Notes: generated by a model from the sequence alone, not told the origin. DNA of 64,000 bases from a virus (IMGVR_UViG_3300037466_002669:174-64173); one strand, 5' to 3'. Counted from the first letter of the stretch, positions 1 through 64,000 are shown. Numbers and translations are program-made.

Positions 1-300
1 GATTTTAGTACATCTGATATGGTAGGGTAATGACTCACTCCCAACTTACTTTATACATTTTTACCTGTTCAAAAGGATGAATTACGCTTGTAACCGAATA
101 CCCTAAATCCATTAATTTTTTAACACCTTCAAGATTTATATGGATACCGAATAATAGAACTTCTTCAAATCCTAATTTAGACTGTGATTCAATTCTTTCA
201 ATAGCCTTTTCATAGTTTGCTGATTGAGCTATTTTTGCATCTGATCTTGCTTCAGATGCGTATAAAGTCTTTTTTACTTTTTTATCTTCCATCTGTTTTA
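1..300. repeat. Near-identical block to 51259-~51560 (offset 51,258)
   Basis: gattttagtacatctgatatggtagggtaatg at 1 and 51259; 85-aa ORFs differ at two residues. Confidence 0.95.
35..292 (-). CDS. Hypothetical phage protein (allele A of 51293..51550)
   Basis: 85-aa ORF conserved in both copies. Confidence 0.8.
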   Translation of the reverse strand: MEDKKVKKTLYASEARSDAKIAQSANYEKAIERIESQSKLGFEEVLLFGIHINLEGVKKLMDLGYSVTSVIHPFEQVKMYKVSWE

Positions 301-310
301 TTTTAGTTAT

Positions 311-646
311 TTAAAAATCAAGGTCAAAAATGATAGTTCCTTTTGGTAGAATAACAGCTTCATCTTCGGCGGCTTCCCGGTCGCTTTCGTCTTCTGAATT
401 AGCGTAACTACTTTTTGTTTCCAACCCTTCACCGGACGGATTAATTAAATCATCCTGAATCTCAGAGATAGCGTAAATTCCGCCTGCTTTTTCTTCGCCC
501 CAAACTCTTACAGGTTGTTTTAATTTATCTGGCGTTAGGGTTAAGCAGAAGTTGTAAATGTCTTCCCATATTAAACTTTTTTCATCGCCCTTTTTGTCCA
601 TCCTGTGAGGACGAACAAGCTGTTTTGTCATTTGTAAATCTTCCAT
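311..646 (-). CDS. Hypothetical protein, copy A only
   Basis: 111-aa ORF co-oriented in early operon. Confidence 0.7.
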   Translation of the reverse strand: MEDLQMTKQLVRPHRMDKKGDEKSLIWEDIYNFCLTLTPDKLKQPVRVWGEEKAGGIYAISEIQDDLINPSGEGLETKSSYANSEDESDREAAEDEAVILPKGTIIFDLDF

Positions 647-650
647 TTTT

Positions 651-848
651 TTAAATTTTACTTGTTTTGTTTAAGAAATCTTTCAATGATTTTTGAAACC
701 CTTTTTGACAACAAAAAAGATATTTTTGATTACCGACTTTAATTTCATCGGTTGGCTCCTTATCACATGCTTCAATTTTGCATACCTGTATAAATTTTTG
801 TTTTGAATTTATACCATCCGGTTTCTGTAAAGAATTCTGCTTTGTCAT
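651..848 (-). CDS. Hypothetical Cys-containing protein, copy A only
   Basis: 65-aa ORF, tight spacing. Confidence 0.6.
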   Translation of the reverse strand: MTKQNSLQKPDGINSKQKFIQVCKIEACDKEPTDEIKVGNQKYLFCCQKGFQKSLKDFLNKTSKI

Positions 849-866
849 CTGGTTTTATTTTAATTG

Positions 867-1064
867 TTATTCTTCATCCAAAATAACAACTACAGTGTCC
901 CGCGCCAATGCTTCTTCATCGTCCGGATCTTCTATAAAATTTATCTCATCACTTCTTACTGAATTCACTAATCCATAAGCAAATTCTGTTTTTCTTTCAG
1001 CTACAAATACATCCATGTTATCTGGATATTGAGATAGCTCTTCGCGTAGTTGTTTTACTGTCAT
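867..1064 (-). CDS. Small acidic hypothetical protein (allele of 51873..52067)
   Basis: Near-identical protein in copy B. Confidence 0.8.
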   Translation of the reverse strand: MTVKQLREELSQYPDNMDVFVAERKTEFAYGLVNSVRSDEINFIEDPDDEEALARDTVVVILDEE

Positions 1065-1072
1065 AAGATTTT

Positions 1073-1516
1073 TTATTTTGGTTGTTGATATTGTTCGTAC
1101 TCTTCACGGGTGGATGGAACGCAATTATCGAGGTGCATACTAATTTCTTCTTCATCGTGAGTTCCGGTATTGTCTAAAACAAGTATTAGTGCATAAGGCT
1201 CGTTTTCATTCCCATAATTGTAGCCTTCATCTGGATAATTACCATAAGCAATAGGTTTAAAAACACCGCAGATGCTACATCCACTATTGACTACTTTTAC
1301 ATACTCCGGCAAGTCTTCAATCTTTCTTTCTTCCCACCACTCCAATTTTTTAAAAAGGTGCGGGTATTCTTGCATATAGCCGCTATTACAAAAGCCTTCT
1401 CCTTTTACCAAATATGCTGATGTTCCGATTATAATATTACCCATTTCAAATGCCTGCGAAGGATAATCAGCAATTACTTTGTAGCGCGGTTTCAAAATCT
1501 CTTCTTTACTAAGCAT
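1073..1516 (-). CDS. Hypothetical protein, copy A only
   Basis: 147-aa ORF. Confidence 0.7.
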   Translation of the reverse strand: MLSKEEILKPRYKVIADYPSQAFEMGNIIIGTSAYLVKGEGFCNSGYMQEYPHLFKKLEWWEERKIEDLPEYVKVVNSGCSICGVFKPIAYGNYPDEGYNYGNENEPYALILVLDNTGTHDEEEISMHLDNCVPSTREEYEQYQQPK

Positions 1517-1527
1517 AATTTTTTATT

Positions 1528-1992
1528 TTAGATAAGTTCAAAAATGTAAATCAAATCCTTGTTCCATACTTTCTGTTCTGCTTCTTCCCATTCAAGTAGT
1601 TCTAATGCACCGTTTCGTTGAGAAAATAAAATAGGTGTACCGTCCGGTTTTTCGCCTAATGGATTCTCAAAATAAACTCCGTTGGCTTGTAAATAAGAGA
1701 AGAAAGATTCTTTGGCGGTTTTTACCCATCTATCTATAATAACGCCTTGCCAGTTGTAATTTTGAAAATGCTGATCTTGCATTAATTTTTCTACCCAATT
1801 CTGGAATTGCTCTTCTGTTATATAGGTTAGTTTGCCGACTTCTTTAATATTAAAATCAAATTTTGCCACGACTTTTGAAAATGGTTTAAAGTATGTCAAA
1901 TAATTGCCAAATCTTACTTTTACATTATAAGCACCTTCCGGCATCTCTACTAACAATAATTTCTTTTTAAGATTGAGTATTTGTTGTTTCAT
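1528..1992 (-). CDS. Hypothetical protein, likely start MKQQILN at 1992 (mosaic allele of 52288..52683)
   Basis: Copy B homolog starts at the same MKQQILNLKKKLLLVE and ends EEAEQKVWNKDLIYxFExI. Confidence 0.75.
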   Translation of the reverse strand: MKQQILNLKKKLLLVEMPEGAYNVKVRFGNYLTYFKPFSKVVAKFDFNIKEVGKLTYITEEQFQNWVEKLMQDQHFQNYNWQGVIIDRWVKTAKESFFSYLQANGVYFENPLGEKPDGTPILFSQRNGALELLEWEEAEQKVWNKDLIYIFELI

Positions 1993-2153
1993 TTGGGTTA
2001 AATTATTTTTGAGAAATAATAAGTGATTAATTCTTTTATTGTTAACCATTTATGGCAACCTTTAATGTCATACATCGTAACGCCTCCTCTCACTTCTTTT
2101 TTACAACTTTCTTCAAATTGAGCAAAGCCTGTTATTTGTTGTTTCATTGATTG

Positions 2154-2348
2154 TTATTTTAATAGTTCTAACCTGCTTTTTATTAACGCAGCACCTTCAT
2201 AATTTTCGGTTTGAACCTGATGTTTCATTAGTTTCAATAAATCTTCTTTATTCATCAATACCACAAATTCTATTGGTATAGAAATTTCTTTTTCAGTCGT
2301 TTCCAATAAACCTAAATATTCAGAAATACCTTTATGAAACATTTTCAT
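2154..2348 (-). CDS. Hypothetical protein with UVR-like C-terminal coil motif (ENYEGAALIKSRL)
   Basis: 64-aa ORF; motif resemblance only. Confidence 0.5.
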   Translation of the reverse strand: MKMFHKGISEYLGLLETTEKEISIPIEFVVLMNKEDLLKLMKHQVQTENYEGAALIKSRLELLK

Positions 2349-2358
2349 TTTACTTCAT

Positions 2359-2562
2359 TTATTGGTTTAATAATTCAACTTCATACCACAAGAATCTTAC
2401 GGGTTTCCCGTTTTTCATAAGGCAGTTAATCCACTTTGTTTCTCGTGGGTACTTTCTTCCCTGTTGCACTATTTCAATATTTTTGACTTCAAATATTTGC
2501 CACAGATATAAGCCCAAAGACTGTCTGGTATTCTTATCCATATTTACTATTCTTGCTCTCAA
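2359..2562 (-). CDS. Hypothetical protein
   Basis: 67-aa ORF, overlapping stop/start with neighbour. Confidence 0.6.
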   Translation of the reverse strand: MRARIVNMDKNTRQSLGLYLWQIFEVKNIEIVQQGRKYPRETKWINCLMKNGKPVRFLWYEVELLNQ

Positions 2563-2744
2563 ATTGGTTTAATTTCTACTTCTACTTTAATACATTTCCA
2601 GCCACGTTTTTTAAATTCTTTCCATTCAAAAAATCCTTCGTCCTCAAAACACTTTATCGACCTCTTTTTAGTTTCGGCAAGCGTTGAAAAGTCGTAAAAA
2701 GTCTTTTTAAATTCCTTTACACAGCACCAAAGTTTTTGTTTCAT
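2559..2744 (-). CDS. Hypothetical protein
   Basis: 61-aa ORF, ATGA-type coupling. Confidence 0.6.
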   Translation of the reverse strand: MKQKLWCCVKEFKKTFYDFSTLAETKKRSIKCFEDEGFFEWKEFKKRGWKCIKVEVEIKPI

Positions 2745-3124
2745 ATTTTTTCTTTTAAAGTTTTAGAATCAATAGCAAGACCGGATTCAATTAATCCGAA
2801 AAGATCAAAATGGCGAGAAAGGAGATAACGTACATCCTCAGGAGACCACGTAGTTAATCTAATTATGTAATTCATGTCTGCTCGTTCAACTCCTTTCAAA
2901 TTCCCTCTTTCACTTCTTAAACTTTTCAACTCTTCATCTGTCATATCAGAAAGTTTGCGCAGTTGAATTTGTATATCCTTTATACTCCAGTCGGTAGTTA
3001 TTTTGTTTAAAACATTTGTGGTTAACTGCTCCCAAACAGTCCATGTATTTTCTTCGTAATCATAATACGTGTACCTGACTTTTGCACCTAAATAGAGGTG
3101 GATAAAATCTTTTAATTCTTTCAT
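2741..3124 (-). CDS. Hypothetical phage protein
   Basis: 127-aa ORF, coupled to neighbours. Confidence 0.7.
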   Translation of the reverse strand: MKELKDFIHLYLGAKVRYTYYDYEENTWTVWEQLTTNVLNKITTDWSIKDIQIQLRKLSDMTDEELKSLRSERGNLKGVERADMNYIIRLTTWSPEDVRYLLSRHFDLFGLIESGLAIDSKTLKEKI

Positions 3125-3318
3125 AATTTCTTTTTTACAGTAGTAATAACTATTTGGTTATCCGGTATGTTAAATTGTTTTTGCCAATCAAATACCTGTT
3201 TAGGGAACGGAATTAAACTTTCGCCTACTTCCAATTTTTTCCATTTGAAAAATATTTTTTTCAATAGAGAATATCTGTAGTTATCATTCGTACACTCAAC
3301 TTGTATCTTGTATTTCAT
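3121..3318 (-). CDS. Hypothetical protein (likely start MKYKIQ)
   Basis: ATG at 3318 is more plausible than the TTG at 3363. Confidence 0.55.
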   Translation of the reverse strand: MKYKIQVECTNDNYRYSLLKKIFFKWKKLEVGESLIPFPKQVFDWQKQFNIPDNQIVITTVKKKL

Positions 3319-3350
3319 AATTTCTTTTTTACAGTAAACAAATTTTAGTT

Positions 3351-3505
3351 TTATAAATTCCAAACAGCCTTGTATCTTTTAATAAAATCTGCCGGAAAAT
3401 CAGTTTTAAAACCACAGCGAGGACACACAAATTGTTCGTATTAATGCAATAAGGTGTGTACCCCTCCCTTGTCATTAAATTTTCTCTTACAATTGATGAT
3501 TCCAT
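3351..3505 (-). pseudogene. Frameshifted small CxxC protein gene
   Basis: MESSIVRENLMTREGYTPYC in one frame; EQFVCPRCGFKTDFPADFIKRYKAVWNL* in another, 8 nt later. Confidence 0.5.
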
Positions 3506-3510
3506 AACTT

Positions 3511-3765
3511 TTAATTTTTAAAAATGTATTCTCTTAATTCCGGTTCTATTGATTCATTCATTTTACTTTCTGCGATTAATACTATTTCCCATTCACTATT
3601 TTCCATAGCCCTTTGATACTTATTCTTAAGAGATTCTGTCATCCATTTTATATAAGATTCTCTTACGTGGTAATTACTTTCAAAATCCATAAAATAATCC
3701 TTATTAGGTGGGGTTAAATCCACCGTTACCATAAAAGAACCTCTTATGTATAGTTCAAGTTTCAT
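3511..3765 (-). CDS. Hypothetical protein (truncated allele at 53266..53364)
   Basis: 84-aa ORF; first 32 codons conserved in copy B. Confidence 0.75.
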   Translation of the reverse strand: MKLELYIRGSFMVTVDLTPPNKDYFMDFESNYHVRESYIKWMTESLKNKYQRAMENSEWEIVLIAESKMNESIEPELREYIFKN

Positions 3766-4059
3766 TCAGTATTCGCAGTCATAAAAGTTCAACCTGTTTT
3801 CAAAATCTTGTAATTCTTTCATGCTGTTTGCTACGAAATTTAACATTGCGCCATTCGGCAATAAAACAGCGAACGTCCAGCAATTATAAAAACCGTGAAG
3901 TATCAATTTTATATCAGTGTCTTCGGGTGTATTATTAATTGGATTCCTATTTTCTATTGCTTTTTCAAATAAGACGATTGCCGGTTTTTCTTTTGATTTA
4001 ATCCACCCGTCGGCCAATAATTCAGTTTCCGTTATTTGAGCTTTTTTAATTTTTGCCAT
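3766..4059 (-). CDS. Hypothetical protein, copy A only
   Basis: 97-aa ORF. Confidence 0.7.
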   Translation of the reverse strand: MAKIKKAQITETELLADGWIKSKEKPAIVLFEKAIENRNPINNTPEDTDIKLILHGFYNCWTFAVLLPNGAMLNFVANSMKELQDFENRLNFYDCEY

Positions 4060-4069
4060 TTTTTTTATT

Positions 4070-4348
4070 TTAAGTGTTACTGATAAATTTTAAAGTATGT
4101 AATATCCTTGCCGCCTGTCTTAAAGTTTCGTTAGTAAATCTGATTCCTGTTCCCCGGCATTCCCTGACTAAATCCACCTTCAACTCTTCTGGTAAATCTT
4201 CTATCGGGGTTAAATCTTCTCTCACAAGTAATTCGTAGGTTCTCAGTAGTACTCTTTTAGGAACCGGATTTTCTATAAAAAAATCGAGCATACTTTTATT
4301 CCTGTTGTACATTCCTACAAACTTTGAAGCGAGTTCGAGATCAATCAT
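4070..4348 (-). CDS. Hypothetical protein; C-terminal ~33 aa shared with 53812..54267
   Basis: DLVRECRxTGIRFTNExLRQAARILHTLKFISNT in both copies. Confidence 0.75.
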   Translation of the reverse strand: MIDLELASKFVGMYNRNKSMLDFFIENPVPKRVLLRTYELLVREDLTPIEDLPEELKVDLVRECRGTGIRFTNETLRQAARILHTLKFISNT

Positions 4349-5241
4349 TGTCTTAAATCTTTTCCTTTTACGTCAATAATGTTGAACATTTCTTTCATCC
4401 GGCTTCTTACCCTGAATCCGTACTTTTCCTGAATTTGATCAAAATTGCAATTAGTGGAAATTATCAATCTTGAAAAATCTGTACTGTTCAGATAATAGCT
4501 TTCTAAAAACTCTTTAAACCAATTAATTTTACTTCCGTAATGATTCACGGTTTCTTCGCTACCCACGTCGTCCAGATAGATTACTTTCCCTTTAGCCTGG
4601 AATCCACCGTATTCTCTCACTTCATCTGAAATATCAATCATAGAATAAATTGAGATTGGTTTTATTTTGTTATCCTTTACGCAATTCACCAGGTAGGTTT
4701 TTCCTATTCCCGAAATTCCCCGAATCAGCAAACCTTTTTTAAGTGAAAAGTTTAATTCTGTTTCAAAGCGCGGATCTTCTGAAAGAAAAAAACAAATAGT
4801 TTTTATTAGCGGTTTATTAAACTCATTTTGGATTAATTTTTTGCCATAATTCCGGCTGGCGCAAGACATAACTTTAAAAAAATAACTTGCGTCACATTCT
4901 TTTTTTAGTTGCTCGTAATCGAGTTTTTCTTGCTCTTCCAGCTGTTTTAATTTTTCCTTAATCTCAATGCCAGCGTGTTTATTTTCGTTAGCCACCCTTA
5001 GAATTTCCTCTACATCAATTTCTTTTTCCCAATCAATTGATTTTACTTTTAGTTCAATATTTTCAGCACTTTCTTTTTTATCCCACAGTTTCCAAACGAA
5101 ATGTTTTTTAGCAGTTTCTATGGCGTGGCTTACAGCTTGCTCTTTTTCTTCAGGGGTAAGAATCATTTCTTTTTCTTCAGGGATTATCGAAGTCCATTTC
5201 TTGCCCAACCTTTTGAGGGTGCTTTTTAGTAAGGTTTCCAT
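4345..5241 (-). CDS. DnaC/IstB-like AAA+ ATPase (helicase loader)
   Basis: Walker A GISGIGKT, Walker B IYLDDVG, ISTN sensor; directly downstream of initiator. Confidence 0.85.
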   Translation of the reverse strand: METLLKSTLKRLGKKWTSIIPEEKEMILTPEEKEQAVSHAIETAKKHFVWKLWDKKESAENIELKVKSIDWEKEIDVEEILRVANENKHAGIEIKEKLKQLEEQEKLDYEQLKKECDASYFFKVMSCASRNYGKKLIQNEFNKPLIKTICFFLSEDPRFETELNFSLKKGLLIRGISGIGKTYLVNCVKDNKIKPISIYSMIDISDEVREYGGFQAKGKVIYLDDVGSEETVNHYGSKINWFKEFLESYYLNSTDFSRLIISTNCNFDQIQEKYGFRVRSRMKEMFNIIDVKGKDLRQ

Positions 5242-5968
5242 TTTTTGCTTGTATGATTGATTGAAAATATTTTTCTATTTGGGTTAGTGAGTACCTGGAA
5301 AAATGTTTATCTGAAGCGACGAAAGAAACTAATTCTCCCCATCGGAGTTTGATTGCATACTGTTCGTCCTTGTTAGTAAAAATCGTTTGCTCCTTAAATC
5401 CGAGAATTTTCCCGAAATGAACCGAAATTTTTCTAAGCGATTGAAAATCTTTAATTTGATCTTCTGGATAACCTTCGTTTTTTTCGAGAAACATTTTCGA
5501 CATGGCAGGGATTAAATTTTCGATTCGCGCGCTTTCTTTTTCTTTTTCTTGTTCTTTTTCTTGTTCCATTTCCTTAGCCCCTTGTAAGGGGCTTGTAAGG
5601 GGCTTTAATGAAAAATCCGAATTTATTAAATCATATTTTTTAAGAACAGAAATAACATTTAAGTGCGCCCGGTTTTTTTCTGAAAGTTTCCCATATTGGA
5701 ACAAGATAAAAGAAGGAATAAACCATTTTTTACCGCCGTCAATTTTTACGATTCTAATTTCATCATCATTAAAAAGGGTTAGCGCTCCAGCCTGTGTAAT
5801 AGGCATATCTTTTCCTACATAAGTTTGTGCAATCTCAAAATCTACAATCCATATTCCGGCGTGGTCGCAATCGTGATAAAGGAAATCCCAAAGTAATTTG
5901 TAAGCTCCAGGTAAATTTCTCATAAATGGTTTTTTATACTTATTGGTGTCAGTGAATCTCTTAGGCAT
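5177..5968 (-). CDS. Phage replication initiator (replisome organizer)
   Basis: N-terminal winged-helix-like region, low-complexity EQEKE linker with DNA repeats, upstream of DnaC-like gene. Confidence 0.7.
   Translation of the reverse strand: MPKRFTDTNKYKKPFMRNLPGAYKLLWDFLYHDCDHAGIWIVDFEIAQTYVGKDMPITQAGALTLFNDDEIRIVKIDGGKKWFIPSFILFQYGKLSEKNRAHLNVISVLKKYDLINSDFSLKPLTSPLQGAKEMEQEKEQEKEKESARIENLIPAMSKMFLEKNEGYPEDQIKDFQSLRKISVHFGKILGFKEQTIFTNKDEQYAIKLRWGELVSFVASDKHFSRYSLTQIEKYFQSIIQAKNGNLTKKHPQKVGQEMDFDNP
5533..5606. repeat. Putative origin A: tandem cttgtaagggg repeats/palindrome plus purine-skewed tract inside initiator gene
   Basis: cttgtaagggg at 5581-5591 and 5592-5602; palindrome agcccctt..aaggggct; tttc/ttgttc run 5533-5566. 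Confidence 0.5.
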
Positions 5969-6017
5969 AATTCAGTTTGTTTTAAGTCTTTCATTGGAAT
6001 ATAAAATCAGTTAAAAA

Positions 6018-6443
6018 CTATATCATAGATTTAGCTTTATCCATTAAAGCCAGCATATCCTTCATATTGTTATACTCAATACATACAACAGCCTGTATAC
6101 CTTCATCGTCTATTATGTCAACTGATATAAACACGCTGCCGTCGTTATTTAGGAAAACAGTTTCAACAAGTATCCTATCGTTTGGTCTTAGATATTTCTG
6201 AGACAATATTGGAGCACCTATACTTTTGTGGTATTCAACAACCTTATGGCAATGTTTACAAAGTGTTTTTAATTTATCAACAGGAGCTTCCCAAGGGTCG
6301 CCGGAATATTCTTCGTGATGAACATGTAATTCAGTTTCTTTATCACCGCAAAGGGTACATTTAAAATTATCTCTGTTTAAAATTTCGAGCCGTTTTTTTT
6401 GCCATCTTGGGTCAAGCAGTTTTTCTGCATAGGTTTTTTTCAT
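6018..6443 (-). CDS. HNH endonuclease family protein
   Basis: RD..CxxCG...LHVHH...LCxxCH zinc/HNH pattern. Confidence 0.85.
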   Translation of the reverse strand: MKKTYAEKLLDPRWQKKRLEILNRDNFKCTLCGDKETELHVHHEEYSGDPWEAPVDKLKTLCKHCHKVVEYHKSIGAPILSQKYLRPNDRILVETVFLNNDGSVFISVDIIDDEGIQAVVCIEYNNMKDMLALMDKAKSMI

Positions 6444-6502
6444 TTTTTTTTCAGTTATTATTGGATAAAATCTAATCTCTTAATTCGTGTTACATAAGCG
6501 GG

Positions 6503-6685
6503 TTATTTTAGTGCGCGATCTTTCATTTCCCGGATCAATCTTAAAATTTCATTTGCGGTTTGAACATCTATTTTGTAGTCCACTGCAGAAACTTTTATAA
6601 AGTCTTCCATGAATTCTACATCATTAATAAGCTGCATTAATTTTTGTTCGTTCATTATTTTTATTTTTTTAATAATCCCCTCCAT
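6503..6685 (-). CDS. Hypothetical protein (2 aa differences from 57293..57475)
   Basis: ORF conserved in both copies. Confidence 0.65.
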   Translation of the reverse strand: MEGIIKKIKIMNEQKLMQLINDVEFMEDFIKVSAVDYKIDVQTANEILRLIREMKDRALK

Positions 6686-6905
6686 CGTAATCCATTTTTG
6701 TCTCTATATATTCGGCAGTAGCATCACTATCAACAGATTTATTATCCATGCGTGCCATATATCTATTGTTATTTTCATCTTTTGCATAAACGGTGACACC
6801 TGAGCCAACAAACATGAATAATGTTTTGGGCGCTTTCTTCATTACCCTTTTGAAACTTTTAAGCCAGTCGGTTTCTTCTTTTGTAAATTCTCTATACATT
6901 TTCAA
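6669..6905 (-). CDS. Hypothetical protein
   Basis: 78-aa ORF. Confidence 0.7.
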   Translation of the reverse strand: MKMYREFTKEETDWLKSFKRVMKKAPKTLFMFVGSGVTVYAKDENNNRYMARMDNKSVDSDATAEYIETKMDYDGGDY

Positions 6906-7116
6906 TTAATTTTAATTCTTTTATCGGAACGATTGATGCGTGTTTATTTCCCTTAAATAAAACCTTAGCGTGACTACCGGAAACATATCTTACACTCTTA
7001 ACTTTGCCGGTTATTTCCTGTACAATTCCGGTTTTAGTTATGTAGGTAAAAGACTTTCTATTTAAATGGTGTTTATAAGTCCATTCTACTGTTGCTCCGC
7101 TTTTTAAGTGTATCAT
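6892..7116 (-). CDS. Hypothetical protein
   Basis: 74-aa ORF. Confidence 0.7.
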   Translation of the reverse strand: MIHLKSGATVEWTYKHHLNRKSFTYITKTGIVQEITGKVKSVRYVSGSHAKVLFKGNKHASIVPIKELKLIENV

Positions 7117-7121
7117 GTTCT

Positions 7122-7759
7122 TTAAAATAATTCAGTTTGTAATATTTTTTTCGAGTGAATTCCTTTAAAGCAGTTAAGAATATGTAAGCCGGTTTCAGGA
7201 TGTACACAGTTTCTATAAATCTGATCTTTCCTGGAGTTTATTTTATATTTTGATAAATCAAAACCATATAGCTTACTCCATTCATCTCTTGTTCCTCTAT
7301 TTATGTCAGCTTCTTTTATCTCCGTATTAAAGATTCTAAAGTTGCTCCAAAATAAGTGTCGTCCCATTTCTTTTGTCGGTTTTATTAAAGGTTCATAAAA
7401 TGGATTTACATTTTCCACTACATACCCCCCCCGAAATAATGTTTGAGAAATATAATTTCCTGATACAACTTCATGTCAGGGTATTTCTTTTCTACTTTTC
7501 TATTATTTTTAAAACCCCACATTCTTGCCCTGCTATGGGTTTGACAAGGCGGAGAAGTCCATATAAAATCAAATTCTTCGTAATGGTCTAACAGGTATTG
7601 ATGGGCATCGGCTACAATCACATTATCATCAGGGAAGTAATCTTTATAAACCGCTGCAATGTCTTCCCTGTATTCAACCGCCGTCACTTGTACCTCTTCC
7701 CAAAGTTTCCGGTTTCCTCCGATGCCGGCATACAGGTTTAATACTTTGAATTTTTTCAT
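7122..7759 (-). CDS. C5-cytosine DNA methyltransferase split by a frameshift at a G8 tract (possibly phase variable)
   Basis: Motif I LYAGIGG and motif IV SPPCQ in 7418..7759; motif VI ENV begins 7122..7418; C8 on + strand at 7425-7432 is the junction. Confidence 0.85.
7425..7432 (-). repeat. G8 homopolymer (simple sequence repeat) in methyltransferase
   Basis: catacccccccc gaaata. Confidence 0.95.
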
Positions 7760-7783
7760 TTTTATTCAGTAAACAATTAGTTA

Positions 7784-7999
7784 TTACGCTATTTTTAAAT
7801 ATTCATCCACATTAAAAAATCCTTCTTTCACTGATTCTTTTTTCTTCCGGTTATAAGGGTATTTAGCCAGATTTTCTTCTCTTTTGAACTTCTGTATAAA
7901 GAATCTCGTCGTTCCTAAAATACTGGCCATTTGAGGTTCAGTTAATTTTAAATAGTTGTTGCGGATGAAGTTCTTTTCGTGGTCGGTTAATTGTCTCAT
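7784..7999 (-). CDS. Small HTH-like DNA-binding protein
   Basis: LTEPQMASILGTTRFFIQ helix-turn-helix-like pattern. Confidence 0.55.
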   Translation of the reverse strand: MRQLTDHEKNFIRNNYLKLTEPQMASILGTTRFFIQKFKREENLAKYPYNRKKKESVKEGFFNVDEYLKIA

Positions 8000-8039
8000 A
8001 ATTTTTTTAATTCAGTTATAATTATTATGCTGTGTAATT

Positions 8040-8450
8040 CTATTTACAGACTTTTCTTATAAACTCAATTGGATTTTTGCAGTTAAATTTTTTAGACAAA
8101 CTAAAAATTGCGAAGGCTCTATTTGTTCCGTTGGTCAGATCTAATTCGTTTTCTATAGCTTGAAAAATTCCAAATTGCCTACATTGCTTTAGTGTGATTA
8201 CTCCTGCGTCTAATTGGGATGGGCAAACCTGTCGTAACCAAAAATCAAGAGGGCAATTACTTTTTTCATTATAAGGTGCAATAACTTCATTAAAGTATTT
8301 ATTGACAGGTGCGAAGTCTGTAGTTTCAATTATAAAATAGTTATTTTTATCCCACTCGTAGCCACTTTTAAAAGGTAATGATTTTTTTAAATCAGGGAAG
8401 TGCTTAACAACTTCTTCTGAGCATAGGTAATATTCAATTTCTGTTTTCAT
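8040..8450 (-). CDS. Hypothetical protein
   Basis: 136-aa ORF. Confidence 0.7.
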   Translation of the reverse strand: MKTEIEYYLCSEEVVKHFPDLKKSLPFKSGYEWDKNNYFIIETTDFAPVNKYFNEVIAPYNEKSNCPLDFWLRQVCPSQLDAGVITLKQCRQFGIFQAIENELDLTNGTNRAFAIFSLSKKFNCKNPIEFIRKVCK

Positions 8451-8483
8451 TTTTATATTGGTTTAAATATTTCGTTTTATTTT

Positions 8484-8957: not shown

Positions 8958-9005
8958 TGGTTATAAATATTTTTTGCTTCAAATTCTTGTTTAAACTTTC
9001 CTCAC

Positions 9006-53219: not shown

Positions 53220-53265
53220 TTTACTTCATTTATTGGTTTAATCTTTAAGTTTTATGTGATAGCTT

Positions 53266-53364
53266 TTAATAATTGCTTTCAAAATCCATAAAATAGTCTT
53301 TATTAGGCGGCGTTAAATCCACCGTGACCATGAAAGAGCCTCTTATGTATAGTTCGAGTTTCAA
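53266..53364 (-). pseudogene. Truncated allele of 3511..3765
   Basis: TTG-KLELYIRGSFMVTVDLTPPNKDYFMDFESNY then TAA. Confidence 0.7.
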
Positions 53365-53801: not shown

Positions 53802-53811
53802 AATTTTTATT

Positions 53812-56774: not shown

Positions 56775-56986
56775 AGTTCGCTAAATTCTTTTTCCAATTG
56801 TTTAACAACTTTTGCCAACTCTTTTTTGACGGCTGTAAAGGCTTTTTCTTTCATATTCTCTTTATATGGAGAACTAAGGTTTTCAAGAAAAGAGAGGTTC
56901 CCCTCATCAGTTTTGGCAAGTACAGCTTGTAACTCTAAAATTTCTTTGCGAAGGCTTTGCGCGCGGTAAAAATTTTCAATTTGCAT
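56771..56986 (-). CDS. Hypothetical coiled-coil protein, copy B only
   Basis: 71-aa ORF. Confidence 0.6.
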   Translation of the reverse strand: MQIENFYRAQSLRKEILELQAVLAKTDEGNLSFLENLSSPYKENMKEKAFTAVKKELAKVVKQLEKEFSEL

Positions 56987-56992
56987 AAGACA

Positions 56993-57235
56993 TTATATTT
57001 TATTCATTATTTCTGTTTTGCAGCCGTACTTTTCCAGTTGGTTAATGCGGTATTTTTGCAGTTCACTAAGCCGCCCTGTTTCGGTCTTTACTTCAATAAA
57101 AAAAGGATGAACACCCTCTTTGATTAGCAGCAGGTCAGGAATTCCGTTTTTTGAGCTTTGGATGATCTTTATTACTAAAAAGCCTTTGGCTTCATAGTGC
57201 TTAATAATTTTAGCCTGCAGTTCTGATTCTTTCAT
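56993..57235 (-). CDS. VRR-NUC domain nuclease
   Basis: ESELQAKI...GIPDLL...FFIEVKTETGRLSELQ. Confidence 0.9.
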   Translation of the reverse strand: MKESELQAKIIKHYEAKGFLVIKIIQSSKNGIPDLLLIKEGVHPFFIEVKTETGRLSELQKYRINQLEKYGCKTEIMNKI

Positions 57236-57911
57236 AATTTTTCATTATTATTGGATAAAATCTAATCTCTTAATTCGTGTTACATAAGCGGGTTATTTTA
57301 ATGCGCGATCTTTCATTTCCCGGATCAATCTTAAAATTTCATTTGCGGTTTGAGTATCTATTTTATAGTCCACTGCTGAAACTTTTATAAAGTCTTCCAT
57401 GAATTCTACATCATGAATAAGCTGCATTAATTTTTGTTCGTTCATTATTTTTATTTTTTTAATAATCCCCTCCATCGTAATCCATTTTTGTCTCTATATA
57501 TTCGGCAGTAGCATCACTATCAACAGATTTATTATCCATGCGTGCCATATATCTATTGTTATTTTCATCTTTTGCATAAACGGTGACACCTGAGCCAACA
57601 AACATGAATAATGTTTTGGGCGCTTTCTTCATTACCCTTTTGAAACTTTTAAGCCAGTCGGTTTCTTCTTTTGTAAATTCTCTATACATTTTCAATTAAT
57701 TTTAATTCTTTTATCGGAACGATTGATGCGTGTTTATTTCCCTTAAATAAAACCTTAGCGTGACTACCGGAAACATATCTTACACTCTTAACTTTGCCGG
57801 TTATTTCCTGTACAATTCCGGTTTTAGTTATGTAGGTAAAAGACTTTCTATTTAAATGGTGTTTATAAGTCCATTCTACTGTTGCTCCGCTTTTTAAGTG
57901 TATCATGTTCT

Positions 57912-58549
57912 TTAAAATAATTCAGTTTGTAATATTTTTTTCGAGTGAATTCCTTTAAAGCAGTTAAGAATATGTAAGCCGGTTTCAGGATGTACACAGT
58001 TTCTATAAATCTGATCTTTCCTGGAGTTTATTTTATATTTTGATAAATCAAAACCATATAGCTTACTCCATTCATCTCTTGTTCCTCTATTTATGTCAGC
58101 TTCTTTTATCTCCGTATTAAAGATTCTAAAGTTGCTCCAAAATAAGTGTCGTCCCATTTCTTTTGTCGGTTTTATTAAAGGTTCATAAAATGGATTTACA
58201 TTTTCCACTACATACCCCCCCCGAAATAATGTTTGAGAAATATAATTTCCTGATACAACTTCATGTCAGGGTATTTCTTTTCTACTTTTCTATTATTTTT
58301 AAAACCCCACATTCTTGCCCTGCTATGGGTTTGACAAGGCGGAGAAGTCCATATAAAATCAAATTCTTCGTAATGGTCTAACAGGTATTGATGGGCATCG
58401 GCTACAATCACATTATCATCAGGGAAGTAATCTTTATAAACCGCTGCAATGTCTTCCCTGTATTCAACCGCCGTCACTTGTACCTCTTCCCAAAGTTTCC
58501 GGTTTCCTCCGATGCCGGCATACAGGTTTAATACTTTGAATTTTTTCAT
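57912..58549 (-). CDS. C5 methyltransferase split at G8 (copy 2)
   Basis: Same as 7122-7759; C8 at 58215-58222. Confidence 0.85.
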
Positions 58550-59273
58550 TTTTATTCAGTAAACAATTAGTTATTACGCTATTTTTAAATATTCATCCAC
58601 ATTAAAAAATCCTTCTTTCACTGATTCTTTTTTCTTCCGGTTATAAGGGTATTTAGCCAGATTTTCTTCTCTTTTGAACTTCTGTATAAAGAATCTCGTC
58701 GTTCCTAAAATACTGGCCATTTGAGGTTCAGTTAATTTTAAATAGTTGTTGCGGATGAAGTTCTTTTCGTGGTCGGTTAATTGTCTCATAATTTTTTTAA
58801 TTCAGTTATAATTATTATGCTGTGTAATTCTATTTACAGACTTTTCTTATAAACTCAATTGGATTTTTGCAGTTAAATTTTTTAGACAAACTAAAAATTG
58901 CGAAGGCTCTATTTGTTCCGTTGGTCAGATCTAATTCGTTTTCTATAGCTTGAAAAATTCCAAATTGCCTACATTGCTTTAGTGTGATTACTCCTGCGTC
59001 TAATTGGGATGGGCAAACCTGTCGTAACCAAAAATCAAGAGGGCAATTACTTTTTTCATTATAAGGTGCAATAACTTCATTAAAGTATTTATTGACAGGT
59101 GCGAAGTCTGTAGTTTCAATTATAAAATAGTTATTTTTATCCCACTCGTAGCCACTTTTAAAAGGTAATGATTTTTTTAAATCAGGGAAGTGCTTAACAA
59201 CTTCTTCTGAGCATAGGTAATATTCAATTTCTGTTTTCATTTTTATATTGGTTTAAATATTTCGTTTTATTTT

Positions 59274-59747
59274 TTAATGCTTCATAAAACACAACCAAAT
59301 TGTTTTTCCAGATTTCGCAGTTCTATGACCAAACAGCGGTTTATGATTTGTCAGCTGTAATACTTCGCTAACTTTTATTTGCGCCTCGTTCCATTTAAAT
59401 ATTAAAATTCCAAACGGTTCTAAAACCCGGAAACATTCTGAAAAACCCTGCTCAATATCTTTATGCCAATCAAAAGATAAAACACCGTACTTCTTAGCCA
59501 TCCATGTGTTATGGCCTAATTTTTTCATATGAGGCGGGTCGAAAACAACTACTTTAAATTTATTGTCTTCAAAAGGCATATTCCTAAAATCAACTTCTAA
59601 ATCAGGTTTGATTTCAAGGCTTCTTCCATCACACAAAACGTGGCTTTCTATTCTTTTATCTGTAAATAAAACATCCGGGTTATTTTTATCAAACCAGAAC
59701 ATTCTACTTCCACAGCAGGCATCAAGAATTAAGGGTACTTCAGGCAT
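59274..59747 (-). CDS. SAM-dependent methyltransferase (copy 2)
   Basis: Translation identical to 8484..8957. Confidence 0.8.
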   Translation of the reverse strand: MPEVPLILDACCGSRMFWFDKNNPDVLFTDKRIESHVLCDGRSLEIKPDLEVDFRNMPFEDNKFKVVVFDPPHMKKLGHNTWMAKKYGVLSFDWHKDIEQGFSECFRVLEPFGILIFKWNEAQIKVSEVLQLTNHKPLFGHRTAKSGKTIWLCFMKH

Positions 59748-60126
59748 TGGTTATAAATATTTTTTGCTTCAAATTCTTGTTTAAACTTTCCTCACTTATT
59801 TCACTTTCCTTTCAATAAGTTGTAGATCAATTACCATATCTTTTAAATAAAGATCATCGGTATAAAACGCTCTCATGTTTTCAAAACTTTTATCAACAAA
59901 TGCGCGTAAATTTTTTATACCGCTTATATAGATTTCGGGTATTGATCTATCTTTAAAAAACTTCCCAAGCCTCGCAGCTTCATCAATTATTTCCTGCCTG
60001 TTTTTGAAAGGGAACAATGATTCAGTTATTTCCGTTTCTGAGCTCCTCAAATCTTCGTCGCTTATCTCATCAATGACCACTACATCCTGGTCAACTACAA
60101 CCACTTCTTTTGGCTGCAAAACGATT

Positions 60127-61398
60127 TTATTGAGCGTTGATAGCGATAGCATTTTTTAAGTTTTTAATTCCAAAATCTTTTCTGAACCATCTTAATGTAT
60201 AGTCCTGCTTTGCAATCACTCTTTCATATATCTTTTCTTCTATTCCTCTTTCTGAAAAAATCCAATACAGCATACATTCCTCCTCTCTGTCTTTTGACTG
60301 TATGCGTGCTTTTGCCTGTTGGTAGCTTACAGAAGAAAAGTCAATGTTGTACATCACAAGTGCATCGGCTGTGGAAAGGTTAATTCCTTCTCTGCCGCTT
60401 TGAATTTGCGAGCAAAAAACTTTATGTTTTGAATGATTAAACTCCTCTGGTGAAAGTGTGATCTGTTCGCCAAACACTTTTAAGAGCGCTGTAAACTCCG
60501 CTTTGAATTTGTAGAATATAGCAATCTTTTCTCCTGTGAAATAGGTTTTTATAAAGTCTGCTTTATATGTATCAAAAATTATTGAAGCGCCACTTTCAGC
60601 GATAACCGTTCCGGAATAAATTTGATGCAGCTTTTGCATCAACTTCACTTCTGTATCGGCAATTATTTCCTGTCCATCTTTGCCAATATGCACACGCGTT
60701 TTTTTTATTTTATCTGCAAGGGCATAGGTGCTGTTTTTCATCTCAACTTTTAAAACCTGCTCTTTTACAGCCTGCGTAAATCCTGCATCTTTTTGAGTGT
60801 AAGACAGAAACAAGTGCTTTATTTTTTCGTTAATCAAAAATTCGTTTGCGTAGCTGTAATCATTTAACTGGCGGTTAAAAACATATTTTGTCTTCTTATA
60901 CACATAGCCAGCATTTGCCCAAGCGTAAAAGTTTTTATGATCAGCAAAAGGAGAGAAAGAGGAAACGTGTAATTGATGAAAAATTTGAGAAAAAGATTCA
61001 GGCGTAGGTGTTCCGGAAAGAAATATCACAGGTAGTCCTTGCGCAATATTTTTTAATAATTTTGTTCTTTCTGCAATCACAGGAAATTGTCCTAAACAAT
61101 GCGCTTCGTCACAAATTATCAGATCAAAATTTTCTTCCTGAAAGTTTTGCAGTTGCTCATAGTTAGTAACCACTATTTGAAAAGAAGGTTTAAAATCCTG
61201 GTAGTCATTCTTAATTGATCTGATTGCTTTTTTCTTTGTAAGAAAAATTACTTTTTTTGCGCCATAAAGTTGTGCTGCATGAAAAGAGGTAATTGTCTTG
61301 CCTGTTCTAACCTCCATCGACAGGTAGGCGATCTTATGTTCTTTTAAAAGTACAGCCGCCGAAACGGCTATACTTAATTGGTAGTCTCTTAGTGTCAT
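60127..61398 (-). CDS. SF2 helicase (copy 2)
   Basis: Translation identical to 9337..10608. Confidence 0.9.
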   Translation of the reverse strand: MTLRDYQLSIAVSAAVLLKEHKIAYLSMEVRTGKTITSFHAAQLYGAKKVIFLTKKKAIRSIKNDYQDFKPSFQIVVTNYEQLQNFQEENFDLIICDEAHCLGQFPVIAERTKLLKNIAQGLPVIFLSGTPTPESFSQIFHQLHVSSFSPFADHKNFYAWANAGYVYKKTKYVFNRQLNDYSYANEFLINEKIKHLFLSYTQKDAGFTQAVKEQVLKVEMKNSTYALADKIKKTRVHIGKDGQEIIADTEVKLMQKLHQIYSGTVIAESGASIIFDTYKADFIKTYFTGEKIAIFYKFKAEFTALLKVFGEQITLSPEEFNHSKHKVFCSQIQSGREGINLSTADALVMYNIDFSSVSYQQAKARIQSKDREEECMLYWIFSERGIEEKIYERVIAKQDYTLRWFRKDFGIKNLKNAIAINAQ

Positions 61399-61782
61399 AC
61401 TACGGCCTCCTCTTGCTCCTGGTTAAATAAATTCCATTCTTCACTTGTCATTTTTTCGATAATCTTTTGATTGTTATCTTTTCTGATTATCGTTTTCTTC
61501 CCCTGCTCTGGTTTGTGATATTTAATCTCACACTCAACTTCACGTATTTCATAGCCGCTTGCAACCTTATTTGAGAGAGAATTCAAATCAGACTGAATAG
61601 AATCAAGTCTTGATTTAAACTGACTGCTTACGCTTTTCTTTTCATCGCTTACCGTCTGGAATTGTTGCGTTTTATTTGCCAAGTCCATTGACAGGTCATG
61701 AATTTCAGGTGCAGTAAAATCATAGCGAAGCCACCTTTTTTCTGAATTGTTTAACACTTCCATTTTTATTTTGGTTTAAAGA

Positions 61783-62382
61783 TTAAAAAGGCATTTCATC
61801 TTCTGTTTCTTCGCCGGCCATTGCAGGTTCAGGGGTAGCTGTTTTTGAAAGTTTTGGGAAAATATCGTTTACTACCATTCTTTCAAGAAAGCTCATTAAA
61901 TCGCTATCATCCCATTGAAGCTTGCCTTTTACTTTTATTTGCACCATTTGAGGCAAACCATTTGGATTTTCTTTTGTGTAAAAATGCTTCAAGGCCTTGC
62001 CGTCCTGGTTTAAAAAAAGTGTTACTTTCTTTTTGTCGCCTTCAATTTTCATTGATGGAGAAAAGCGCACCCTCTTTGTCAGGTCAACATTTGGCAGCGT
62101 CTTTAAAAATGCTGAAGCATAGCCGCCGGAATAATTCATTTGGAGAATATACTTCTCTTCTCCATCCTGAATTGACACGTTCCAAAATCTACCGAAAGAA
62201 GGATGGTCATGCGTTTTGATGTCGGTAATAATACCGCTCACGCCATCATAAATTTCTTCGTGGATCACGTTACCATTTTTCAGCGTCCGTGATTGTGAAA
62301 TGTCAGTGGGTTGCTTTACCCGCTTTGTAATTTTGCCGTCACCGATTGATAGGTAAACAGCGTTGTTGTTTTTTTCTAACAT
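61783..62382 (-). CDS. Putative SSB (copy 2)
   Basis: Translation identical to 10993..11592. Confidence 0.55.
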   Translation of the reverse strand: MLEKNNNAVYLSIGDGKITKRVKQPTDISQSRTLKNGNVIHEEIYDGVSGIITDIKTHDHPSFGRFWNVSIQDGEEKYILQMNYSGGYASAFLKTLPNVDLTKRVRFSPSMKIEGDKKKVTLFLNQDGKALKHFYTKENPNGLPQMVQIKVKGKLQWDDSDLMSFLERMVVNDIFPKLSKTATPEPAMAGEETEDEMPF

Positions 62383-62388
62383 AAAATT

Positions 62389-62868
62389 TTAAAATTTAAA
62401 TTGTGTTGATATATTGTTTCTAATTTGATATACGAGTGTGGAATAAGGAATTCTTGTTTTTATTGAAGCGTCCTTAATTGTATTAAATATCTCTCCTGTT
62501 ATTTTATCAATTATTTTTTTTGATTTGAAGTGCTTGCCCCCAGAGGGAGGTGTTCTTAAACCTGTTATTAATGCGTGTTTTTGATTTTCTGAAATGGTGC
62601 ACCATTCCAAATTTTCGACAACATTGTTATGTTTATTACCATCGATATGGTTTATAAAATTCTTGCCGTAAACCTTTGGCAGAAAATGAAGTGCAACAAG
62701 CCTGTGAATTTTAATTGTAGTAATTGTGCCGTTTTTTCGCAGGTTTACGTGCTTATAACCATTTGAACTTTTACCAGGAGATAAAACCTTGCCTTTATTG
62801 TTTTTTACGCTCCCGTCTGGAGATATAAAATACAAGCCCTCAAAACCTTCGATGTCTTTATAAGCCAT
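62389..62868 (-). CDS. NUMOD4/HNH endonuclease (copy 2)
   Basis: Translation identical to 11599..12078. Confidence 0.9.
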   Translation of the reverse strand: MAYKDIEGFEGLYFISPDGSVKNNKGKVLSPGKSSNGYKHVNLRKNGTITTIKIHRLVALHFLPKVYGKNFINHIDGNKHNNVVENLEWCTISENQKHALITGLRTPPSGGKHFKSKKIIDKITGEIFNTIKDASIKTRIPYSTLVYQIRNNISTQFKF

Positions 62869-62900
62869 TTTGTTTTTAATTTAATTGTTAATGAAAATTA

Positions 62901-63482
62901 TTATTGAGTGACTAATTGTGGTTTGGTAATGAGGTTATAAATTTGCCTTGTCAGGTCAATATCATATTGAGCTTCATGCAATCTGGTTTCATCTATTTCT
63001 ATTCCTAAATGTTTGGCTACAGTTTTAAGTTTGAAATCTGTCATTGTATGGCGGTTCTGGATAAGATGTTGTGACGCTAATACGAATACATCAATAGGAC
63101 TACTCCAGAACCATGAGCCGAAATAGTTATCATTGTTTTGAACGAAGAAGGCGCGGAAAAAAGCGTTATCAAAAGAAGCGTTATTGTATCCGACAAGGAA
63201 AAACTTATCTGATTTATCGTACCTGTCAACATATTTGGAAAGCAGATTAATTATTTGACAATAGACCTTTTCAAAATCTTCATACCCTTCTAAATCATTT
63301 CGTGAAATACCTGCCACAGCCAATGCTTCATCTTCAATTAGTGCCTGTTTAAATGGCTTCACGTTGAAATTAAAACGCTCTTTTATTTCTCCATCTATTT
63401 CAATGGCACCACTTATTTGATGAATTCCATTTTTCCAATATTTAACGCCTGTGGTTTCAAGATCAAAAAAGAATAGTTTCAT
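62901..63482 (-). CDS. DEDDh exonuclease (copy 2)
   Basis: Translation identical to 12111..12692. Confidence 0.9.
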   Translation of the reverse strand: MKLFFFDLETTGVKYWKNGIHQISGAIEIDGEIKERFNFNVKPFKQALIEDEALAVAGISRNDLEGYEDFEKVYCQIINLLSKYVDRYDKSDKFFLVGYNNASFDNAFFRAFFVQNNDNYFGSWFWSSPIDVFVLASQHLIQNRHTMTDFKLKTVAKHLGIEIDETRLHEAQYDIDLTRQIYNLITKPQLVTQ

Positions 63483-63580
63483 TTTTATTTACAGTTATTG
63501 AGTGACTAATTTTATTAAAAAGGAAGGGAGTTATAATATTGCTATAATGAAGCAAGACGTTATAACAATTTAAATTATAA

Positions 63581-64000
63581 CTACCCCACCTGAGTGACTA
63601 ATTTGTGTTTCAGTTGATAAGACAATTGCCGCGGCATCGCTCCTTCATTTTCCGCAAGCCAAAGTTTGTGCGTAGCTTGAAAAAGGTTCCACTCTTTATC
63701 CAGGTTATCTTTAATAATTAACTGCCATCCCTTACCCTGCATAGTGCCAGCTTTGCCGTCAGTTTTTGTTTTTGCATTAAGCCAAAGGATTGCCGTTTTC
63801 TGAATTGGGTTATAGCCGTATTCTTCGGTCAAAAGTTTTTCGTACGCTGCCAGTTGAAGCCAGTATGATGGCCATATTGAGCCGCTTGTTTTGATGTCGA
63901 TCAAATATTTTTCACCATTCATTTCTATTACCCTGTCAAGCGTTCCTGCGAAGCCTAATTTTGCAGAAGCAAGCGATAGTTCTGAATGAATAACCTCAAA
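63581..64000 (-). CDS. PD-(D/E)XK exonuclease (copy 2, 5' end outside window)
   Basis: Matches 3' part of 12791..13570. Confidence 0.85.
   Translation of the reverse strand, partial: FEVIHSELSLASAKLGFAGTLDRVIEMNGEKYLIDIKTSGSIWPSYWLQLAAYEKLLTEEYGYNPIQKTAILWLNAKTKTDGKAGTMQGKGWQLIIKDNLDKEWNLFQATHKLWLAENEGAMPRQLSYQLKHKLVTQVG

Follow-up and report, generated by a model that had tools for sequence, protein, structure and literature searches.

The record consists of one IMG/VR contig (64,173 nt), and the window, the whole stretch of DNA analysed here (64,000 nt, contig positions 174–64173), omits only its first 173 nt. The window sequence is continuous with zero N, IMG/VR classes the record as 'linear', CheckV gives it a completeness of 100%, and neither a tRNA gene nor host DNA is present in the 64,173-nt contig. 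Based on the ORF list and family matches, a single-copy body spans 13211–51258; it opens with the rest of an early arm on the minus strand (to ~17483) and continues with a divergent control region, attP, the integrase gene (int), and then the late genes. On the plus strand, family matches identify the genes for the small terminase (terS, 21320–21856) and the large terminase (terL, Terminase_3, 21831–23252), and the same strand encodes the portal (23302–25026) and the tape measure (31913–35290); head, tail, and fibre genes also reside in the body. This plus-strand late arm ends at ~50076, after which minus-strand genes occupy 50155–51302. A megablast search against 50,697 deposited phage genomes returned zero matches to the late region, an exact-protein look-up found nothing on record for the 146-aa protein encoded at 50862–51302, and an exact 39-mer taken from the contig start was absent from the viral contigs searched. 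Three large relatives (G001, G002, and G003) have only early modules in common with this phage, at 73–93% identity across aligned segments, and do not share its structural genes; therefore, they are not usable as unit-length references for the late region.

The attachment site and the integrase

The attP core, TCGAATCCGCTCGGGACCTCC (18309–18329, plus strand, 21 nt), matches the 3' end of tRNA-Cys(GCA) at 21 of 21 positions, and a tRNA-Cys(GCA) 3' end exactly equal to this core occurs in more than 100 Bacteroidota genomes. Judged from such matches, the host would be placed among the Bacteroidota, at no finer rank. A tyrosine integrase gene begins 122 nt downstream of the core (18452–19615, plus strand) and contains the Pfam domains Arm-DNA-bind_5, Phage_int_SAM_5, and Phage_integrase. 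The initial annotation had placed an att site with phage DNA on either side at 18309, and we confirmed both the exact tRNA-Cys 3' end and the phage sequence on its two flanks. A junction of the attP type is equally expected from a circle or a concatemer. An 18-nt fragment of the tRNA-Cys 3' end also adjoins a 65%-identical integrase elsewhere. When used as a query, the integrase had zero relatives among genome contigs and viral contigs and found three short contigs only among metagenome contigs; none of these three reached a full tRNA, so they gave neither attL nor the identity of the host. Exact-protein look-up returned nothing on record for the integrase.

An attR-type junction was found in one short contig (L224, 1,137 nt) from sample 3300038443. 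This contig is 100% identical to window 17293–18328 and then runs into a hairpin and a T-run, a terminator-like sequence unlike the phage; beyond the core, its host flank had no match among the tRNA-Cys loci retrieved. This junction suggests that the phage does form lysogens, and its integration in tandem is biologically feasible.

Two alternative early modules next to a shared segment

The left part of the window holds an early/replication module on the minus strand (A arm, 1–6446; PHROG and Pfam matches), which is truncated at the contig start, 173 nt to the left of the window. It encodes a DnaC-like helicase loader (4345–5241) and an HNH endonuclease (6018–6443), both on the minus strand and matched in PHROG/Pfam, and between them a minus-strand ORF of 263 aa without a family match (5177–5968), whose position next to the loader suggests an initiator. 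The alternative module (B arm, 51259–57237, minus strand; family matches) encodes an 836-aa protein with Prim-Pol and DUF5906 (D5-type) primase-helicase domains (54264–56774, minus strand) and a VRR-NUC protein. Small ORFs are also carried by both arms.

Each arm adjoins a copy of the same early segment, here called S1, on the minus strand. The first copy, delimited by pairwise alignment and family matches, covers 6626–13210, and the second covers 57416–64000 and reaches the last base of the contig; the two are identical across 6,585 nt. Its contents include fragments of a C5 DNA methyltransferase, an SNF2/DEAD helicase gene (9337–10608), an HNH gene (11599–12078), and a 3'–5' exonuclease-like gene (12111–12692), the last three on the minus strand. 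A PD-(D/E)XK exonuclease gene (12791–13570, minus strand) has its 3' part within S1. Exact-protein look-up found no record elsewhere of the proteins encoded at 12791–13570 and 13664–13984, just right of S1, whereas proteins of S1, the A arm, and the B arm do have exact matches on record. This difference between S1 and its right-hand neighbours fits S1 being a module common to several genomes, and thus a repeat in the assembly graph.

Anatomy of the repeats

Self-BLAST revealed a long repeat, in which 6447–13210 corresponds to 57238–64000 at 99.9% over 6,764 nt, and a short one, in which 1–308 corresponds to 51259–51567 at 97.7%. By pairwise alignment, all six mismatches and the single indel of the long repeat are confined to 6454–6625, within a transition zone between arms and shared segment (6447–6625). 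In contig coordinates, 1–481 resembles 51256–51740 at 92.8%; within the single 64,173-nt contig, homology thus spans from the first base to the last. Between the two repeats, self-BLAST detected only short patches of 82–100% identity (854–1079, 1526–1587, 1652–1722, 1932–1994, 2134–2161, 2342–2371, 3671–3764, and 4062–4174), which leaves a mosaic or non-homologous stretch of ~6 kb within a terminal overlap of 13.4 kb. The initial annotation had described an early operon that occurs twice, with ~6 kb of different mosaics between the two pairs of matching stretches, and both parts of that description hold. Headful terminal redundancy and direct terminal repeats were considered for this overlap and rejected, as the terminal copies are not identical and ~6 kb of the 13.4 kb is mosaic or non-homologous.

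The repeats are spaced by 51,258 and 50,790 nt. These spacings had been read as two unit genomes, A (51,258 bp) and B (50,790 bp); the spacings are correct, but the contig content is ~1.26 unit lengths, with the early region doubled and int, attP, and the late genes single, and only B is complete. The B-type circle alone closes in the contig (window 6626–57415, 50,790 bp), and the A arm is a 6.6-kb overhang. Taken together, the two copies of the long repeat make up a duplicated region of 13.5 kb, or ~21% of the contig.

The arms and the shared segment in sister samples

A sister JGI sample, 3300037418, has a separate contig for each of the A arm, the B arm, and S1, and these three are 99.97–100% identical to this contig: L222 covers window 2605–6504 of the A arm (99.97%), L219 covers 52949–57542 of the B arm (100%), and L220 covers 6936–13258 in S1 (100%). 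The A and B arms thus co-occur in this sample. L219 ends exactly 127 nt beyond the last A/B difference (57415), a distance equal to a junction vertex at K=127. These separate edges with overlaps of k-mer length were seen in the sister assembly; for the record's own assembly, we infer the assembler and k-mer size from the sister samples. S1 is 100% identical in another sample too, so the perfect identity of the two S1 copies does not discriminate between explanations.

Pieces of the A arm (99.9–100%) are separate contigs in samples 3300037312, 3300037418, 3300037467, and 3300037419. In an incomplete index of exact matches, the A-arm protein encoded at 311–646 occurs in 3300037312, 3300037467, 3300037419, and one Logan run, and the B-arm Prim-Pol occurs in 3300037418 only. 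Another sequence lies to the left of the A arm in two other samples: L216 and L218 run past the first base of this contig into a flank with a GH19 endolysin gene, and L217 links the A arm to this contig's own flank. The first bases of this contig carry the G allele, which is the one seen with the foreign flank (two of the three sister contigs).

Contig ends and k-mer signatures

This phage and G001, a more distant relative, share a block of 185 nt (13107–13291) without any difference. The end of this contig, which corresponds to 13210 in the first copy, lies inside this block, as do three independent contig ends (G002 at 13172, G001 at 13199, and L220 at 13258), so that four contig ends from different assemblies fall within 86 nt. 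Moreover, the last 126 nt of G001 and the last 99 nt of G002 match this contig exactly. The contig appears to stop at a graph junction and not at a biological end.

G001 (56,788 nt), a related UViG from sample 3300037466, is over-length in the same way. The identity between its two ends is 75–95%, and an exact repeat of its first 127 nt lies at 52635; G002, which comes from a different sample and has a single copy, matches one of the G001 end variants at ~97%. A clean 127-nt signature is absent at the two ends of this contig, where the exact runs measure 3 nt (start versus second copy) and 104 nt (end versus G001), and the k-mer argument is thus built on the sister contigs and G001.

Origin of the head-to-tail arrangement

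The initial annotation had interpreted the window as a hetero-dilysogen or heteroconcatemer of two sister phages joined head to tail. The anatomy beneath this headline stands, namely two early/replication alleles, the rest in single copy, and attP amid phage DNA; the headline itself is not supported. The A arm is cut at the contig start and there carries an allele tied to another left flank in two of three sister contigs, the contig end is a breakpoint of independent contigs as well, and the sister assembly keeps A, B, and the shared segment apart. A real molecule, whether a tandem hetero-dilysogen at tRNA-Cys in an uncultured Bacteroidota host or a packaged heteroconcatemer whose ends are heterozygous, is an unlikely source of the contig. 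In a true dilysogen, prophages with the A and B cassettes would sit side by side at tRNA-Cys, the attP at 18309 would be their hybrid junction, and the contig would be internal to the pair. Lambda, CTXphi, and others are known to form tandem polylysogens at a single att site, and these precedents favour such an arrangement, as do the phage DNA on both sides of attP, the attR-type junction in a sister sample, which suggests integration, and the two arms found together in 3300037418. However, the record is without host DNA, attL, and attR, holds 1.26 units only, and doubles the early region alone in place of two complete units in series. With a duplicated body and a three-way att junction, a contig from a short-read graph should break at the att core, whereas the break observed is at 13210, a position shared with unrelated contigs. 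In addition, the A arm is found in three samples in which the incomplete index gave no exact match to the B Prim-Pol, it has the other left flank in two, and G001 repeats the over-length shape with ends that are only 75–95% identical and a start that is repeated over exactly 127 nt. We consider the dilysogen very improbable.

The heteroconcatemer, in which two variants would recombine after co-infection or induction and yield one molecule of over-unit length whose two ends bear different alleles, A and B, is likewise very improbable. The phage encodes a small terminase and a large subunit of the Terminase_3 family, which includes pac/headful packagers, both variants are present together in at least one sister sample, and terminal-redundancy heterozygotes, classic in T4, provide a precedent. 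Against this, the redundancy would amount to 13.4 kb on a 50.8-kb unit (26%), far more than headful packaging usually gives, a single molecule cannot be reported by a short-read assembly, the contig end matches graph junctions of other assemblies, and the A arm begins with the allele tied to a foreign flank in two sister contigs. A genuine genome of at least 64 kb, with the two replication cassettes and an early region that had been duplicated internally or terminally and had diverged, would agree with the CheckV rating and the continuous, N-free sequence, but we regard it as extremely improbable. A perfect direct repeat of 6,585 nt would be recombinationally unstable, the repeat runs off the contig end, and the single-copy relatives G002 (46.7 kb) and G003 (53.1 kb) have completeness ratings of 100% and 98%. 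True terminal repeats, being copied from one template, do not differ, whereas here 6 kb of the 'repeat' lacks homology; because the two copies differ, a real genome with long terminal repeats was rejected.

Collectively, the evidence indicates that the contig is probably one path of a short-read de Bruijn-graph assembler through co-occurring, mosaically related temperate phages of presumed Bacteroidota, and the head-to-tail join is most likely an assembly artefact and not a physical double prophage. The other option named in the initial annotation, an assembler joining two co-occurring variants, is the better supported one; the separate A, B, and shared contigs come from the sister assembly, and we infer that the source assembly behaved alike. 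The real unit would be a ~50.8-kb genome that assembles as a circle, encodes a Terminase_3 large terminase, and integrates by its tyrosine integrase into the 3' end of tRNA-Cys. Window 6626–57415 would represent one whole turn of a B-type genome with the Prim-Pol/D5 primase-helicase, and a relative in the same community would carry the A arm, with its DnaC-like loader replication cassette, next to a 6.6-kb S1 that is 100% identical. The path may have started in the A arm, passed through S1, and continued along the body, attP included; where the arms fork, it would have taken the still-unused B arm, entered S1 a second time, and ended at the far junction of S1. The underlying biology would then be ordinary module exchange among related phages.

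Implications and comparison with known systems

A real join would offer a snapshot from nature, with two phages that replicate by different strategies physically linked in one cell and module exchange between them caught in the very arrangement where modular recombination is thought to occur. On the assembly-path reading, the head-to-tail join would not be a molecule, and the value of the finding is practical and concerns record quality. A record rated 'linear, 100% complete' is ~26% over-length, with a true unit of ~50.8 kb, and probably chimeric between two variants at its left end; this record and the similar G001 would mislead analyses of genome size, gene content, or clustering. The underlying biology is real but familiar: replication cassettes swapped between shared flanks, a tRNA-Cys attP, and one integrated junction.

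Tandem polylysogeny with a hybrid attP-like junction occurs in lambda dilysogens and CTXphi arrays. The window resembles these in having an attP amid phage DNA and two alleles of one region, but here there is no attL, attR, host DNA, second int, or second set of late genes, and the content is 1.26 units. The exchange of replication modules is well known among lambdoid phages and dairy siphoviruses and belongs to the modular theory of phage evolution. Similarly, the DnaC-loader and Prim-Pol/D5 cassettes occupy the same slot between shared flanks, with conserved patches of 28–234 nt at gene boundaries; here, however, the hosts would be uncultured freshwater or soil-type Bacteroidota, and the variants are known from metagenome contigs only.

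Variant phage 'bubbles' have been described in assembly graphs by Phables (PMC10104058), where alternative modules of a circular component form parallel arms between shared unitigs. The sister assembly gives just such pieces as A, B, and shared contigs, whereas in the record one linear path would go via both arms with no break at the forks. The CheckV paper reported IMG/VR contigs with large duplications, flagged by k-mer frequency, in which assemblers concatenate genome copies, and terminal repeats of k-mer length (PMC8116208). In the present record, by contrast, the path switches between two variants, and ~6 kb of the 'repeat' consists of another gene cassette, which is why the IMG/VR end-repeat test calls it 'linear'. 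As in those flagged contigs, an IMG/VR contig exceeds its unit genome and contains a large duplication, and a related contig has an exact terminal repeat of 127 nt.

Repeat structure of the contig

The source record is a single 64,173-nt contig from the IMG/VR virus collection, of which the window omits the first 173 nt; its ends are classed as 'linear' by IMG/VR, and its completeness is rated 100% by CheckV. Positions about 51 kb upstream of the att site and near 69 kb, where the initial annotation would look for attL and attR, lie beyond this contig. Self-comparison matched 6447-13210 to 57238-64000 at 99.9% over 6,764 nt and 1-308 to 51259-51567 at 97.7%, which bears out almost to the base the early-operon duplication and the match of 1-300 to 51259 described in the initial annotation. 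Between the two repeats, only short patches of 28-234 nt are alike (82-100% identity). Once the 173 nt that precede the window are counted in, homology begins at base 1 of the contig (contig 1-481 against 51256-51740, 92.8%), and it ends only at the contig's last base. All six mismatches and the single indel of the long repeat are confined to 6454-6625; the 6,585 nt that follow (6626-13210) do not differ between the copies. The contig thus comprises an A arm (1-6446), a first copy of S1, the early segment common to both arms (6626-13210), a single-copy body (13211-51258), a B arm (51259-57237), and a second copy of S1 that runs to the contig end. Because the early region is present twice and the body once, the whole amounts to about 1.26 unit lengths. 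The only closed unit is a B-type circle of 50,790 nt (6626-57415), whose closure rests on the exact overlap of 6,585 nt.

Gene content of the body and the two arms

The unit, a temperate tailed phage, has an early arm that runs leftward on the minus strand from about 17483, and its plus strand encodes an integrase (18452-19615; Arm-DNA-bind_5, Phage_int_SAM_5, and Phage_integrase domains), the small and large terminases (21320-23252; Terminase_3), and portal, head and tail proteins, a tape measure, and fibre genes. S1 carries C5-methyltransferase fragments, an SNF2/DEAD helicase, an HNH endonuclease, a 3'-5' exonuclease-like gene, and part of a PD-(D/E)XK nuclease gene. The A arm encodes a DnaC-like helicase loader (4345-5241), a 263-aa ORF without a family match, and an HNH gene, and the B arm an 836-aa Prim-Pol plus DUF5906 primase-helicase; the two arms are swapped replication cassettes of the classic modular kind. 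An A-type cassette, at 88% identity, is also present in a 53-kb relative (IMGVR_UViG_3300038393_002038), whose bases 1-510 open with a tandem array of copies offset by multiples of 30 nt.

Two S1 ORFs (7418-7759 and 8484-8957, again at 58208-58549 and 59274-59747) match DNA methyltransferase families only in part (positions 51-132 of a 327-position profile and 54-202 of a 229-position one) and may be split or frameshifted genes. The free-standing HNH endonuclease gene (11599-12078), between the exonuclease-like gene and a 199-aa gene, is missing from a variant contig of JGI sample 3300038443, which is 100% identical along 12935-12072 and resumes directly at 11589-11389 with 86% identity. The gene is a presence/absence polymorphism with one side diverged, the pattern expected of a homing endonuclease.

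The arms and S1 lie on separate contigs in a sister sample

Exact-protein look-up found pieces of the same phage in a series of sister JGI samples (Ga0395899 to Ga0395903). One of these samples, 3300037418, has a separate contig for each of the three parts: L222 for the A arm (2605-6504, 99.97%), L219 for the B arm (52949-57542, 100%), and L220 for S1 (6936-13258, 100%). L219 ends exactly 127 nt beyond the last A/B difference (57415), an overhang such as a K=127 de Bruijn assembler produces at merging paths. The three separate contigs and the overhang indicate that the region formed a bubble, with two arms and a shared edge, in that assembly. The other end of L219 (bases 4567-4604, against 2124-2161 and 52949-52976) crosses a 28-nt linker common to both arms and continues for about 10 nt in the A-arm version, which hints at B/A recombinants with crossovers at gene-boundary linkers.

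An exact A-arm protein occurs in four data sets and the exact B-arm Prim-Pol in one; although the exact-match index is incomplete, this unequal occurrence suggests that the arms are not obligately linked. The proteins encoded just right of S1 were found in no other record by exact-protein look-up, whereas S1 and arm proteins do recur, a pattern that fits S1 as a module common to several genomes.

Both contig ends are probable assembly breaks

The right end of the contig falls at the equivalent of first-copy position 13210, where the first copy runs on uninterrupted, which does not fit a biological terminus. L220 ends at 13258, and two related IMG/VR records, G001 and G002, end at the equivalents of 13199 and 13172. 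All four ends fall within a 185-nt block (13107-13291) in which this phage and G001 do not differ, although their sequences around it are only about 90% alike; the last 126 nt of G001 and the last 99 nt of G002 match the contig exactly. Such clustering of ends from several assemblies in a conserved block fits graph breaks at an inter-genome repeat.

The left end also appears to be an assembly break. Three metagenome contigs (L216, L217, and L218) match up to base 1 and then extend further, L216 and L218 into a different flank and L217 into the contig's own flank, the latter join indicating that recombinants exist. The L216 flank encodes a GH19 endolysin, and only short patches of it resemble the 49.4-51.1-kb region of the contig. 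Base 4 of the contig is G, the allele seen with the foreign flank, and not T, the allele seen with its own flank; this argues against a 51,258-nt 'unit A' on the same body, although it is one SNP only.

The attachment site

The attP proposed at 18309 was upheld. More than 100 Bacteroidota genomes, including Chitinophagaceae, Flavobacteriales, and Cytophagales, carry its 21-nt core (18309-18329) as the 3' end of their tRNA-Cys(GCA), and in the phage the sequence to the left of the core is non-tRNA; a search of the whole window found no tRNA gene. A 1,137-nt contig from JGI 3300038443 (L224, Ga0395901_0576843) matches 17293-18328 at 100%, taking in the left att arm and 20 nt of the core, and switches within the core to a hairpin and T-run that resemble the terminators after host tRNA-Cys genes and are unlike any phage sequence here. 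L224 therefore reads as an attR-type junction, suggesting that the phage integrates at tRNA-Cys and occurs as a lysogen in that sister sample; the host flank of L224 had no match among the Bacteroidota loci fetched. One Logan contig retains the attP arrangement.

A related integrase (65% identical) on an otherwise unrelated contig (Ga0134125_10406375; bases 1-170 of locus L214) adjoins an 18-nt tRNA-Cys 3' fragment with non-tRNA DNA upstream; the integrase-target pairing seems to be kept in this distant relative. The same 21-nt core, preceded by non-tRNA sequence, lies at 2449-2469 of a Chitinophagaceae MAG locus (DATHDV010000118.1), where a different tRNA-Cys-integrated element may have its far junction.

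Origin of the over-length contig

The most likely account, and one we consider quite probable, is that the contig is an assembly path through co-occurring mosaic variants: the assembler would have passed from the A arm through S1 and the body to the B arm and into S1 again. The left 6.6 kb is then one of two alternative arms and may derive from another phage background. This path account demands identical S1 copies, as found, although their identity alone is not decisive because S1 is 100% identical in another sample too. An assembler join of two variants was the second option of the initial annotation, and the separate A, B, and S1 contigs, the clustered contig ends, and G001 make it the best supported.

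The headline of that annotation, two sister genomes joined head-to-tail, is most likely not real, given about 1.26 units with only a B-type circle closed. Readings that invoke a real molecule draw on the apparent existence of lysogens (L224) and on the contig's own two ends, where a clean k-mer signature was looked for and not found. An attP with phage DNA on both sides is predicted equally by a circle, a concatemer, and a tandem array. We consider it unlikely that the contig represents a real heteroconcatemer or a headful-packaged heterozygous molecule, and at least as unlikely that it is a true tandem hetero-dilysogen; that it is one genuine genome of 64 kb or more is very improbable. Hence, under the assembly-path account, the 'complete' UViG IMGVR_UViG_3300037466_002669 exceeds its unit length, and its left end is probably chimeric.

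The over-length shape is seen again in G001 (IMGVR_UViG_3300037466_002354, 56,788 nt), which has early modules in common with this phage and is likewise rated linear and 100% complete. Its bases 1-5051 are homologous to its 52635-56788 at only 75-95%, and its first 127 nt recur exactly at 52635; two variants of a single ~52-kb genome are therefore probably present in it. G002, which comes from another sample, is single-copy and about 97% identical to one of these end variants. IMG/VR contigs with large assembler-made duplications and k-mer-length terminal repeats are known (CheckV; PMC8116208), as are variant bubbles in phage assembly graphs (PMC10104058).
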